Shown piece by piece: positions 11,737 through 48,661 of a stretch of DNA of 64,000 nucleotides. The notes below the pieces were generated by a model. The model did not search any database. It worked only from the letters and a program-made list of their open reading frames with translations, and was not told the DNA's origin. The stretch is from the NCBI RefSeq assembly GCF_051860965.1, contig NZ_JBIMKU010000003.1, positions 367,671 to 431,670 of the forward strand. Reading direction: 5' to 3'. Both the position numbers and the translations under genes were made by a program. The first letter of the stretch is position 1, and each line of letters starts with the position of its first letter. This stretch comes from Microbacterium sp. (GTDB lineage: Bacteria > Actinomycetota > Actinomycetes > Actinomycetales > Microbacteriaceae).

Positions 11737-11808
11737 TCCGCCGTGGTGTAACGGCAGCACGACAGCCTTTGGAGCTGTGAGGCCCAGGTTCGAATCCTGG
11801 CGGCGGAG
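11737..11808 (+). tRNA. tRNA-Gln (anticodon TTG), CCA not encoded
   Basis: Full cloverleaf: acceptor TCCGCCG/CGGCGGA, anticodon stem ACAGC/GCTGT with loop CTTTGGA, T-arm CCAGG-TTCGAAT-CCTGG. Confidence 0.97.
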
Positions 11809-35162: not shown

Positions 35163-37826
35163 TCAGCCGGTGTTCTGCAGACCCGCGGCGACGCCCGAGA
35201 CCGACAGCAGCAGCAGACGCTGGAGGTCGGGATCGACCTCCTCGGCCGACCGCAGGCCCCGCAGCGCCCGCAGCTGCAGGAGCGACAGGGCATCGACGTA
35301 GGGGCTGCGCATCTTCACCGCGCGCTGGAGCACGGGCTTGTTGCCGAGCAGCTCGGTGCCGCCCGTCAGGCGCACGACCCACGAGCGCGTGAGCGCCATC
35401 TCGTCGCTCACCAGGGTGGCGAGATCGTCGCGATCGCCGAGCGACAGGTAGTGCCGTGCGATGCGGTCGTCGGCCTTCGCGAGGCTCATGGCGACGTTGT
35501 CGATCAGGGTGCGGAAGAGCGGCCACTCGCCGTAGGCGCGCACGAGGCGCTCTTCGTCGCCGACGGCGTCGAGCGCCGTGCCGAGGCCGAACCAGCCCGC
35601 CAGGTTGATGCGCGCCTGCGTCCAGGCGAAGACCCACGGGATCGCCCGGAGGTCCTCGAGCGACTCGACCGACAGGCCGCGCCGCGCGGGTCGTGAGCCG
35701 AGGGCGAGCAGGCCGAGCTCCTCCATGGGCGTCACCTGCGCGAACCAGGGTGCGAAGCCCGGCGCCTTGACGAGTTCGAAGAATCGCGCGCGGGATGCCG
35801 CATCCATCGCCGCAGCGACGTCGGCGTAGCGCTCCGCGGCCTCGCTGTTGCGGCGCTCGATCGAGGGGGCCGACGCGAGGAGCACGGCGGCGGCGACCTG
35901 ATCGATGTGGCGCATCGCGATCGCGGGATCGCCGTATCGGGCGAAGATGACCTCACCCTGCTCCGTGAGCTTGAACCGCCCGTCGACCGAGTGCGGCGGC
36001 TGCGCGAGGATCGCCGAGTTGGCGGGCCCTCCGCCACGACCGAGCGCTCCGCCGCGGCCGTGGAAGAGGGTCAGCTCGATCGCGTTCTCACGTGCCCACG
36101 CCGAGATCTGCGCCTGCGCATCGTAGAGCGCGAGGTTCGCCGCGACCGGCCCGACGTCCTTCGACGAGTCCGAGTAGCCGAGCATCACCTCGAGACGGCG
36201 GCCCGTGGCATCCAGTCGCGCGGCGAACAGGGGATGCTGCACGATCTCCGCCAGGATCGCCGGCCCCGCCTGCAGGTCGGCGAAGGTCTCGAAGAGCGGG
36301 ATGACGTCGAGCACGGGAGGGGTGCCGTCCGGCCCGACGGCGTAGCGCGCGAGGCGGTGGACGTTCGCGAGGTCTTCGGCGGACTGCGTGAACGAGACGA
36401 TGTAGCGCCCGGCTGCGCGGGGGCCGTAACGCTCCTGCAGGAACACGATCGTGCGGAAGACCTCGAGCACCTCTTCGGCGAGCTCGCTGCGCGGCGCGCC
36501 GGCGTCGAGCTCTGCGAGCACCTTCGCGTGCACGGCGGAGTGCTGGCGGACCTCGAGCTCGGCGAGGTGGAAGCCGAACGACTCCACCTGCCACATCAGC
36601 TGCTGCAGGTGCCCGTAGGCCTGCCGCGGCGCGCGGGCCGCGATGAGGGAGTCCTGCACGACCCGCAGATCTGCGATCAGCTGCTCGGGGTCGCGGTAGG
36701 CGAGGTCGGCGTCGCGCGTGCGGGTCGCGGCGATCTTGCGAGCGACGAGGAGCAGGATGCGGCGGTGCGGCTCGTTCGGCGAGCGTTTCGCGATCTCGGT
36801 GGCGGCATCCTCGTCGGCGTCCTTGAGCCGCTGCCACAGAGCGGTGAGCGCCGCGGACGGGGGAGTGGTCGAGGCATCCAGCGTCAGCGTCCGCCCGATG
36901 CGCGCCGCCGTCCGCTCGAGGCCGAGCAGCACGTGCTCGCTGGCGATCCCGGCCGCCTTGCGGGTGACCGAGGCCGTCACGAAAGGATTGCCGTCGCGGT
37001 CGCCGCCGACCCACGACCCGACCCGCACGAACGGCCGGACGACGGGGGCGCGTCCGCCCGCGGCCGGTCCTTGCAGGGCGTCGTCGACCCGCCGGTAGAC
37101 GTGCGGCACGGCGGTGTAGAGCGTCTCGTCGAAGATCGCCATGACGGCGCGCACCTCGTCGGTGGGCGCGGGCTTCTCGGGGCGCAAGGGCGCGGTGCGC
37201 CACAGCGTGTCGATCTCCTCGAGCATGCGACGCTCGGCGCGGCGCTGGTCGGCGCCGTTTCGCAGAGACGCGTCGTGCTCTTCGAGGAGGACGGCGAGGC
37301 GACGGATGCTGGACGACACGGCTCGGCGACGAGCCTCGGTGGGATGCGCGGTGAAGACGGGGTGGAACCGCAGCGCCTGCAGGCGGGCCAGGGCCGTGTC
37401 GTCGCCGACCTCGGCCGCGAGGTGCACGAAGGCGGCGGCGATCGAGTCACCGGCCTCCTCTCGGTCGGGGCGCCCGTCGCGCTCGCGCAGGATGCGCACG
37501 CGCTGGTGCTCCTCGGCGAGGTTGACGAGGTGGAAGTACGCCGTGAACGCGCGCGCGACCTCGTCCGCACGGGCGATCGTGAACGAGTCGGCGATCGCGG
37601 CCGCGCGGGCGAACGCCTCGTCGCTCTCGTCGGTGTAGGCCTGGATCGTCGCGACCCGCAGGCTCTCGACATCTTCGAACAGACCCGGCGAGCCGCTCTC
37701 CCGGAGCACCTTGCCGAGAAGCGCCCCGAGCATGCGCACATCCGAGCGCATCTGCTCGGGGATCTCCTGCTCGGCTTCGTAGCGGCCGACGAGGTCGATC
37801 GCCTCGGTCTGGGTCAGTTCGCGCAT
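35163..37826 (-). CDS. ppc: Phosphoenolpyruvate carboxylase
   Basis: FTAHPTE, SWVGGDRDGNP, VMLGYSDSSKD, FHGRGGALGRGG, LRAIPWVFAW, C-terminal GLQNTG. Confidence 0.98.
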   Translation of the reverse strand: MRELTQTEAIDLVGRYEAEQEIPEQMRSDVRMLGALLGKVLRESGSPGLFEDVESLRVATIQAYTDESDEAFARAAAIADSFTIARADEVARAFTAYFHLVNLAEEHQRVRILRERDGRPDREEAGDSIAAAFVHLAAEVGDDTALARLQALRFHPVFTAHPTEARRRAVSSSIRRLAVLLEEHDASLRNGADQRRAERRMLEEIDTLWRTAPLRPEKPAPTDEVRAVMAIFDETLYTAVPHVYRRVDDALQGPAAGGRAPVVRPFVRVGSWVGGDRDGNPFVTASVTRKAAGIASEHVLLGLERTAARIGRTLTLDASTTPPSAALTALWQRLKDADEDAATEIAKRSPNEPHRRILLLVARKIAATRTRDADLAYRDPEQLIADLRVVQDSLIAARAPRQAYGHLQQLMWQVESFGFHLAELEVRQHSAVHAKVLAELDAGAPRSELAEEVLEVFRTIVFLQERYGPRAAGRYIVSFTQSAEDLANVHRLARYAVGPDGTPPVLDVIPLFETFADLQAGPAILAEIVQHPLFAARLDATGRRLEVMLGYSDSSKDVGPVAANLALYDAQAQISAWARENAIELTLFHGRGGALGRGGGPANSAILAQPPHSVDGRFKLTEQGEVIFARYGDPAIAMRHIDQVAAAVLLASAPSIERRNSEAAERYADVAAAMDAASRARFFELVKAPGFAPWFAQVTPMEELGLLALGSRPARRGLSVESLEDLRAIPWVFAWTQARINLAGWFGLGTALDAVGDEERLVRAYGEWPLFRTLIDNVAMSLAKADDRIARHYLSLGDRDDLATLVSDEMALTRSWVVRLTGGTELLGNKPVLQRAVKMRSPYVDALSLLQLRALRGLRSAEEVDPDLQRLLLLSVSGVAAGLQNTG

Positions 37827-37848
37827 CCGTCAACGGTATCGCCGCCGT

Positions 37849-37864
37849 GTTACATCAATGTCAC
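37849..37864. promoter_or_regulatory. GTTAC-N6-GTCAC direct repeat, GlnR/MtrA-type box candidate, over the ppc -35 region
   Basis: GTTACATCAATGTCAC, 10 nt upstream of the ppc -10 (TACCGT, 37838-37833). Confidence 0.45.
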
Positions 37865-37903
37865 GGGGGGACGCAGGAGGACCCCGCTAGAGTGGTGTGC
37901 GGA

Positions 37904-37939
37904 GTGCCGGGAAGTCTGGTCGGCGGCACCGACCCGACC
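37904..37939 (+). promoter_or_regulatory. Candidate pseudoknotted cis-regulatory RNA in the nhaA leader
   Basis: GTGCCG/CGGCAC and GGTCGG/CCGACC crossing stems between the TAGAGT -10 (37888) and the SD GAGAGGA (37944). Confidence 0.5.
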
Positions 37940-37955
37940 CCACGAGAGGAACAGG

Positions 37956-39152
37956 ATGCATCTGCTCCGTTCTGCCCGCTTTCCCGCTATCGTCCTGCTC
38001 GCCGCCGCGATCCTCGCCCTCCTTCTCGCGAATTCTCCGTGGGGCGCCGCCATCGTCGGGGTCAAGGAGACCTACCTCGGCGTTCCCGGCGTCTTCGAGA
38101 TGTCGGTGGGGCACTGGGTCCAGGACGGACTCCTCGCGATCTTCTTCTTCGTGGTCGCCGTCGAGTTGCAGTTCGAGCTCACCAACGGAGAGCTGAACTC
38201 CGCCCGCAAGGCCCTGCAGCCCGCGATCGCGGCAGCGGGCGGTGTCGTCATCCCCATCGCCGTCTACCTCGCCTTCGCGGCCGGGTCCGACGCGGCCTCC
38301 GGCTGGCCGATCCCGACGGCCACCGACATCGCGTTCGCCCTCGGCGTGCTCGCGGTCTTCGGCAAGGGCCTCCCCTCCGGCATCCGGATCTTCCTCCTGG
38401 CACTGGCGATCCTCGACGACATCGTCGGGATCGTGTTCATCGCGGTGCTGTTCACGGACGGCGTCGACATCGGGATGCTGGCGCTCGCCCTCGTGGCCGT
38501 GGCACTGTTCGGAGTGCTCAGTCGCGCCTCCGGCGGTCGGGGTCGCGTCGCGATCTCTCTCGCTCTCGTCGTGCTCGCCATCACGGCGTGGGTGCTCGTC
38601 TACCTCTCGGGCGTCCACGCGACGATCGCCGGAGTGGCGCTGGGGCTCGCGATGGCCCAGCAGCCCGCGCTGCGCGCGCGACACGCGCTCGAGCCCTGGG
38701 TGAATGCGATCGTGCTGCCGCTCTTCGCCTTCTCGGCGGCGCTCGTCGTCATACCCGCCGTCTCGGCGGGCCAGCTGTCGCCGGCGTTCTGGGGCGTGCT
38801 GGTCGCGCTGCCCGTCGGCAAGGTCGTCGGGATCACGCTCTTCGGCTGGCTGTCGCTGCGCATCGGGAACAGGGGCGCAGCGCCCCATCTGTCGATCGCC
38901 GATCTTCTGACGGCGGGCGCGCTCGGCGGCATCGGCTTCACCGTGTCCCTCCTGCTGTCGGAGCTCGCCTTCGCGGGGAGTCCGCTCATCCGTGACGAGG
39001 CGACCCTCGGCGTCCTGGCCGGCTCTGCCGTGTCGCTCGTGATCGCGGCGATCCTCGTGTCGCAGCGCGCGAGGTACTACCGTCGGCGGGGTGACGCCGC
39101 CGCCGACGCCGATCCCGTCCACGCCGATCCGAACGAGAGTCGCATCACGTGA
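37956..39152 (+). CDS. nhaA: Na+/H+ antiporter NhaA
   Basis: WVQDGLLAIFFF, AAAGG, GWPIPTATDIAFALG, LAILDDI, SGVHATIAGV, GIGFTVSL. Confidence 0.96.
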   Translation: MHLLRSARFPAIVLLAAAILALLLANSPWGAAIVGVKETYLGVPGVFEMSVGHWVQDGLLAIFFFVVAVELQFELTNGELNSARKALQPAIAAAGGVVIPIAVYLAFAAGSDAASGWPIPTATDIAFALGVLAVFGKGLPSGIRIFLLALAILDDIVGIVFIAVLFTDGVDIGMLALALVAVALFGVLSRASGGRGRVAISLALVVLAITAWVLVYLSGVHATIAGVALGLAMAQQPALRARHALEPWVNAIVLPLFAFSAALVVIPAVSAGQLSPAFWGVLVALPVGKVVGITLFGWLSLRIGNRGAAPHLSIADLLTAGALGGIGFTVSLLLSELAFAGSPLIRDEATLGVLAGSAVSLVIAAILVSQRARYYRRRGDAAADADPVHADPNESRIT

Positions 39153-48588: not shown

Positions 48589-48661
48589 GCCCCCGTAGCC
48601 CAATGGCAGAGGCAGGCGACTTAAAATCGCTTCAGTCCGGGTTCGAGTCCCGGCGGGGGTA
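48589..48661 (+). tRNA. tRNA-Leu (anticodon TAA) with a short 5-nt variable loop, CCA not encoded
   Basis: Acceptor GCCCCCG/CGGGGGT, anticodon stem GGCGA/TCGCT with loop CTTAAAA, T-arm CCGGG-TTCGAGT-CCCGG, discriminator A. Confidence 0.95.

Follow-up and report, generated by a model that had tools for sequence, protein, structure and literature searches.

The 5' end of the nhaA mRNA in the Microbacterium genome studied here is probably a conserved cis-regulatory RNA and a candidate riboswitch, of a class that is absent from Rfam and from the literature searched. The set of genes that it precedes resembles those of the Na+-I and Li+ riboswitches. The window, by which we mean the whole stretch of 64,000 nucleotides that was analysed, holds the element in the 129-nt gap separating the divergent ppc and nhaA genes (Table 1). 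A cis-acting element in the nhaA leader had been proposed in a preliminary description of this DNA; it has proved to be conserved, strand-specific and tied to genes for monovalent-cation transporters. The ATG of nhaA was found at position 37956, not at 37957.

Table 1. Features of the ppc/nhaA region, in positions of the window.
Feature	Position	Strand	Remarks
PEP carboxylase gene (ppc)	35163-37826	minus	Pfam PEPcase, E 2.8e-238
-10 box TAGAGT	37888-37893	+	ends 7 nt 5' of the conserved block
Conserved 24-nt block GGAGUGCCGGGAAGUCUGGUCGGC	37901-37924	+	consensus GGNGNG-[C/U]CGGGAAGNCUGGUCG[G/A]C; sharp edges; 159 different instances
Block 5' tail GGNGN	37901-37905	+	Gs 1, 2 and 4 invariant; positions 3 and 5 free
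S1 of the preliminary description, GTGCCG (37904-37909)/CGGCAC (37924-37929)	37904-37929	+	present here, not conserved
P1 5' arm GCCGG	37906-37910	+	pairs with 37920-37924; helix predicted unaided by RNAalifold
P1 loop GAAGUCUGG, 9 nt	37911-37919	+	invariant save the fifth base (U, C, A or G)
P2 5' strand GGUCGGC (5' arm of the earlier S2 plus one base)	37918-37924	+	complement enriched in leaders
P1 3' arm UCGGC	37920-37924	+	putative switching strand, common to P2
P2 3' strand	37929-37939	+	two overlapping CCGACC (37929-37934, 37934-37939), then CC
Shine-Dalgarno (SD) GAGAGGA	37944-37950	+	5 nt upstream of the nhaA ATG; read from the sequence
nhaA, Na+/H+ antiporter, 398 aa	37956-39152	+	presumed regulated gene; Pfam PF06965, E 1.4e-100

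A 24-nt block is conserved in actinobacterial leaders

Loci of nhaA were taken from 40 relatives and then oriented. The block (...GGNGNGCCGGGAAGUCUGGUCGGC...) was present in the leaders of 19 of 30 nhaA loci; the remaining leader sequence differed. In the information profile, 24 positions were conserved, 20 of them invariant or nearly so, and the flanks were random. About 160 different instances of the block, which can also be written GGNGNG-CCGGGAAGNCUGGUCGGC, were available (159 in the pair counts below). The sequence GTGCCGGGAAGTCTGGTCGGC, which the preliminary description had associated with nhaA in other actinobacteria, is indeed conserved near this gene across them.

When one genome per species was scanned for the exact word, at least about 95 stretches with the full block were obtained. 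The matches listed include Streptomyces, Nocardia, Amycolatopsis, Micromonospora, Arthrobacter, Leucobacter, Cellulomonas, Nocardioides and Blastococcus as well as Acidimicrobiales, Gaiellales and Solirubrobacterales. Those listed from outside Actinomycetota were without the GGNGNG prefix and situated within genes, with the exception of a single full block in a Chloroflexi MAG (L065). This copy precedes a permease-like gene resembling one in the actinobacterial locus L211, and it could stem from a mis-binned contig or from horizontal transfer. With a loosened pattern, in which four stem positions and one loop position were left free, matches were obtained in 249 of 401 sampled genomes and in 106 of 174 genera of the class Actinomycetes, while the reversed pattern, used as a control, gave almost always zero matches. 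The stem positions left free were still almost always GCC in the matches. The source Microbacterium genome has a single copy of the block. A search for RNA sequencing runs of this bacterium found none: runs filed under its species name seem to derive from a eukaryotic host, and four candidates consisted of metagenome DNA. The contigs of the latter, from other organisms, aligned to positions 37897-37925 only, which again shows the conservation of the block.

Several nhaA loci of the same genus (L010-L015, L019) are without the block. They form one NhaA clade, are 60-66% identical and share the N-terminus ...ANPLRGQQFP. A TACGAT box lies a few bases 5' of the likely ATGCGCATC start in this clade, which suggests that its nhaA mRNAs are leaderless. 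Within Microbacterium, then, the element has undergone loss or replacement. The source genome also has a second NhaA-like gene (contig C13:15303-16508), which is longer, with a frame of about 636 aa and 37% identity, and likewise lacks the block.

The block precedes genes for monovalent-cation transport

A downstream open reading frame could be assigned for 127 copies, and in all of them the block is oriented towards its gene, an orientation that the preliminary description had singled out as a check. NhaA was encoded in 73 of the 127 cases and Na_H_Exchanger (CPA) proteins in 22-24. Less frequent were Na_Ca_ex (4-6), DUF2254 (4), CBS-domain proteins (3-6) and NatA-like ABC ATPases (2-4), and single cases comprised TrkH, a P-type cation ATPase, SulP and a CitMHS/ArsB/NhaD-like permease. 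The genes under the element encode unrelated protein families with one theme, the export and homeostasis of monovalent cations. The element has in this respect the features of a riboswitch: it is a conserved, structured element of the 5' UTR, on the sense strand, in front of functionally related and non-homologous genes.

Two blocks frequently stand 0.2-3 kb apart, in divergent or tandem arrangement, before different transporter genes (L098, L116, L132, L140 and L217, the last with nhaA and an ABC ATPase; also G691:C1:3980307/3980724 and G093:C1:3640077/3642684). These loci look like small cation-stress gene islands.

Covariation supports a hairpin, P1, within the block

The proposed hairpin, P1, consists of a GCCGG/UCGGC stem, a 9-nt loop (GAAGNCUGG) and the 5-nt tail GGNGN. 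When the five pairs, numbered from the first stem base, were counted over the 159 instances, pair 1'-19' was GC in 154, UA in 2 and GU, AC and UC in 1 each; pair 2'-18' was CG in 148 and UA in 11; pair 3'-17' was CG in 158 and UA in 1; pair 4'-16' was GC in 158 and GU in 1; and pair 5'-15' was GU in all 159. Doubly compensated pairs occurred in 14 instances (C-G to U-A at 2'-18' and 3'-17', G-C to U-A at 1'-19') and G-U replacements in 2, with zero half-changed intermediates at pairs 2' to 5'. On the NhaA tree the U-A state of 2'-18' required three changes, at least two of which are forced by well-supported branches, and the same state was found in families that are not on this tree. RNAalifold, applied to a MAFFT alignment of 33 short leaders, predicted exactly P1; all cells were paired, and the observed value was reached in none of 500 shuffles. 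The predicted base pairs of P1 are, in short, backed by covariation, and the events are few because the stem is so conserved in sequence. Both conservation and covariation among actinobacterial leaders, which the preliminary description had proposed to look for, were found.

The G tracts of the block (GG..GGG..GG..GG) might also be read as a two-layer RNA G-quadruplex that would sense ion ratios through its different stability with K+ and with Na+ or Li+. A two-tetrad pattern would accommodate the four G runs and their loops of 2-7 nt, and the invariant Gs of the tail otherwise lack an explanation. However, an A at 18' (11 of 159 instances) or at 17' (one instance) breaks the fourth G run and is compensated in P1 each time, as predicted by the hairpin and not by the quadruplex. 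We therefore regard the quadruplex as very improbable.

Further pairings were considered for the block and its surroundings. An alternative hairpin register (CCGG/CUGG with a GAAGN pentaloop), predicted by ViennaRNA in some leaders, found no compensatory support and is contradicted by the U12'-to-G and G1'-to-U variants. An outer helix, CCGGG:CCCGG, burying the first Gs of the SD was rejected as well, 'CC' preceding the SD in 21% of cases as compared to 18% in control genes. Neither complements to the 5' arm of the block nor a pairing partner for the tail GGNGN were enriched among the leaders. Directly 3' of the block, several leaders (L079, L081, L023, L095, L118) carry (R)GGGAGUC, a near-repeat of GGGAAGUC of the block; in L079 it occurs as three repeats with CAAGGGCUCC.

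The 3' strand of a predicted competing helix, P2, is anchored next to the Shine-Dalgarno sequence

A 7-nt window was slid along the block, and the leader was searched for its complement in comparison to shuffled sequences. Only the last 7-8 nt of the block (GGUCGGC) had an enriched complement in the leader, and all other parts were at or below the null expectation. Seven contiguous pairs were possible in 31% of the leaders and 11% of the shuffles, and six or more in 67% and 36%, respectively. The complement, GYCGACC and often then CC, has its 3' end 10-22 nt upstream of the start codon, immediately 5' to the SD; the most enriched leader hexamers were GACCCC (8.6-fold) and CGACCC (5.9-fold). 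In leaders of at least 45 nt, the complement remains 12-22 nt from the start codon, with loop lengths ranging from 13 to 40 nt. Copies with an A at 18' always had a U opposite in P2. In the window, the minimum free energy (MFE) fold pairs 37918-37923 with 37929-37934. As to an expression platform, the leaders thus hold an enriched, SD-anchored complement to the 3' arm of P1, of which a clear form is absent from about a third of them.

P1 and P2 cannot coexist because they share bases, which makes the predicted arrangement a switch and not a pseudoknot. A pair of mutually exclusive helices built into the leader had already been suspected in the preliminary description, and this idea was borne out in the form of P1 and P2, which have 37920-37924 in common. 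In the free thermodynamic ensemble, the probability of P1 was about 0.01 and P2 dominated the predicted folds. When P1 was forced, the mean predicted accessibility of the SD went from 0.46 to 0.38, that is, it was not raised; folding consequently does not predict the direction, or even the mode, of control.

The preliminary description had drawn an H-type pseudoknot from S1 and a second stem, S2 (GGTCGG at 37918-37923 with CCGACC at 37934-37939, or alternatively with the CCGACC at 37929-37934), following the TAGAGT box. All of these strings, as well as loop 1 (GGAAGTCT), are present in the window at the positions given. Both stems are perfect 6-bp helices here, and an H-type arrangement with two such stems arose in only 45 of 3000 dinucleotide shuffles. 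Judged on this one sequence, the pseudoknot as drawn exceeds chance only weakly: the MFE of 37895-37960 was -21.2 kcal/mol as compared to -22.65 +/- 2.92 for shuffles (z +0.50) and hence no better. Among relatives, S2 (GGUCGG/CCGACC) recurs and is enriched, but S1 does not hold: it pairs at 6 of 6 positions in just 3 of the 159 instances, with a median of 3 of 6. S1 and P1 have 5' bases in common, the 3' partner of S1 lying three bases further on, and the S1 register appears to be particular to this genome. Since the covarying stem is out of register with S1 by these three bases and overlaps S2, we consider it hardly credible that the pseudoknot acts as an aptamer.

In most copies the block is predicted to lie at the start of the transcript

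Of 160 instances, 116 have a TAnnnT box that ends 6-9 nt 5' of the block, the distance being 7 nt in 73 of them; in the upstream profile, -15 is a T and -19 an A. As the -10 box ends 7 nt before the block, transcription would start roughly at or beside its first G, and the block would usually begin the transcript. SD-like tracts were found in other leaders at the same place as in the Microbacterium nhaA leader. Copies from Streptomyces and Nocardia hold 15-25 extra bases between promoter and block; the block is thus not always at the start of the transcript, which speaks against an operator coupled to the promoter.

Such an operator, located at about +1 to +24 and bound by a widely conserved repressor of cation transporters, with the stem as its dyad, would account for the fixed place of the block after the -10 box in 116 of 160 copies. 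The partial dyad GCCG-N11-CGGC is present, and the compensatory changes in P1 maintain this DNA dyad (GCCG...CGGC) too, which counts against the RNA reading. However, pair 5'-15' is an invariant G-U, and further G-U replacements occur elsewhere in the stem; a dyad has no need of these, and a perfect one in DNA would carry G/C or A/T, whereas a G-U fits RNA. The conserved 5' tail is without a mirror image, and the complement to the 3' arm adjoins the SD, its spacing being variable and G-U pairs being tolerated. Together with the extra bases in some copies and the uniform orientation of the block towards its gene, these features favor RNA over DNA, and we consider the operator quite improbable.

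In Nocardia, Amycolatopsis and related copies (L054, L074, L080, L116, L132, L150, L154), a conserved box, TTTACGGCATCTTTAC, directly 5' of the block stands in place of the usual TAnnnT -10 sequence. It may represent a different type of promoter or a second regulatory site. Streptomyces copies (L059, L083, L088, L096, L109, L130, L146) have a small conserved inverted repeat (AACGCGTCA...GACGC) between promoter and block, and the block is not at the first base of the transcript. A leaderless small open reading frame starting from a GUG within the block was rejected, since no more than 56 of 98 copies carry a U as the middle base.

The element matches no known RNA family

A cmscan of positions 37700-38100 against all 4227 families of Rfam 15 at E <= 10 returned only a chance match to a miRNA on the opposite strand, and scans at gathering threshold of the window and 18 related loci gave no match at the element. 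[quoted passage not shown] The element matched none of these at E <= 10, neither nhaA-I (Li+-I/Na+-II) nor, assuming that both models are contained in Rfam 15, nhaA-II (Li+-II), a motif reported only from some Proteobacteria, and DUF1646 (Na+-I). At gathering score, the only Rfam matches in the whole window were two tRNAs (11737-11808 and 48589-48661). In one Gaiellales MAG (L044), a fluoride riboswitch at 1672-1734 lies about 100 nt from the block, on the plus strand with the block on the minus strand. No description of the element was found in a search of the literature.

The Li+ (nhaA-I/II) and Na+ (DUF1646) classes have been described from Proteobacteria and Firmicutes. The Li+ riboswitches (PMC9646797; Weinberg et al. 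2017, PMC5737381) are likewise cis-acting leaders, mostly of nhaA and occasionally of other cation transporters; they were discovered as conserved motifs, and they serve as ON switches in ion export. They differ in being reported from Proteobacteria only and in their larger, multi-helix aptamers and, in accordance with the Rfam search, they have no match in sequence or structure to the element, which consists of a single 24-nt hairpin block at the mRNA 5' end in Actinomycetota. The Na+-I riboswitch (DUF1646; White et al. 2022, PMC9337991) is associated with similar genes, namely Na+/H+ antiporters, Na+ pumps or exporters and sodium-related transporters. However, its architecture is a different one, and DUF1646 RNAs usually have terminator platforms (PMC9337991), whereas the element described here apparently uses an alternative helix adjacent to the SD. 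According to the papers on these classes, alkali cations are known to be sensed only by a single bacterial protein and by three classes of RNA (Na+-I, Na+-II and Li+-I/II), none of them reported from Actinobacteria.

Very small translational riboswitches exist in guanidine-II (the mini-ykkC hairpins) and preQ1-I, in which loops are highly conserved and part of the aptamer competes near the SD. Their ligands are organic cations or bases, and guanidine-II is made up of two kissing hairpins. The element shares with both the tiny size, the conserved loop and the predicted competing pairing near the SD, but the loop sequences differ, and a second copy of the hairpin, as in guanidine-II, is absent from the block-bearing leaders. 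In the alx leader (PRE) of E. coli, alternative folds control a membrane transporter under alkaline stress; this enterobacterial RNA is long and acts through transcriptional pausing. No likeness in sequence to the element was seen. The alx system is mentioned in PMC10197570.

Proposed mechanism

We propose that P1 with its loop and G-rich tail is the likely sensor, since P1 is weak and P2 dominates the predicted folds; P1 would then form only with the help of a ligand or a protein. P2, in which GGUCGGC pairs with GYCGACC, would be the more stable default fold and lock the region just 5' of the SD. A signal of cation stress would change the proportion of P1 to P2 and with it the access of ribosomes to this region, thereby setting the amount of antiporter. 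Decay of the mRNA dependent on its 5' end is a possible alternative output. Judging from the set of genes, the most likely signal would be a raised cytoplasmic level of Na+ or Li+, possibly also alkaline pH. Since exporters are turned on by the Li+ and Na+ classes, P1 probably corresponds, by analogy, to the ON state.

In its strongest form, to which we give somewhat less than an even chance, this proposal takes the block for the aptamer of a very small riboswitch of a new class, with Na+ or Li+ as its directly bound ligand. Actinomycetes would have in it their main sensor of Na+/Li+ stress, and it would control exporters of the NhaA, NhaP, NhaD, NatAB and P types by the helix swap next to the SD. 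Just as tentatively, and as part of the same reading, the sensor class would be present in most genera, including Streptomyces, Nocardia and relatives of the mycobacteria. We infer RNA rather than DNA as the active form, translation as the output and direct binding of the ion. A hairpin of 24 nt is very small for a selective ion pocket, which counts against the riboswitch reading.

Instead of an ion, a conserved actinobacterial RNA-binding protein or ribonuclease that carries the cation or pH signal might read the hairpin, its binding determining whether P1 or P2 is formed. The near-invariance of stem, loop and tail in sequence, and not just in pairing, is typical of recognition by a protein, and the element is very small, with a P1 too weak to form alone. 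However, no regulator gene is consistently adjacent to the element, the neighbors varying from ppc at the present locus to others elsewhere, and both the gene set and the layout match those of ion riboswitches, which work without a protein. We consider recognition by a protein unlikely, though well worth bearing in mind.

Significance of the element

Taken as a whole, the comparative evidence indicates that the element is widespread and uncatalogued and that, as a leader RNA of cation-transporter genes with an anatomy like that of a riboswitch, it represents a new class. The regulatory idea of the preliminary description is supported to the extent that comparing sequences allows, and its pseudoknot is wrong in detail. 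Should it be an ion sensor, it would explain how the export of sodium and lithium is switched on throughout a phylum that counts antibiotic producers, and also relatives of important pathogens, among its members. It would then also be among the smallest natural RNAs that respond to ions, would aid in studying how RNA discriminates between Na+, Li+ and K+, and might find use as a compact genetic part. Even if the hairpin is read by a protein, the element would define a conserved cation-stress regulon, and it reassigns poorly annotated genes, such as those encoding DUF2254 and CBS proteins and some 'drug efflux' ABC systems, to ion homeostasis.
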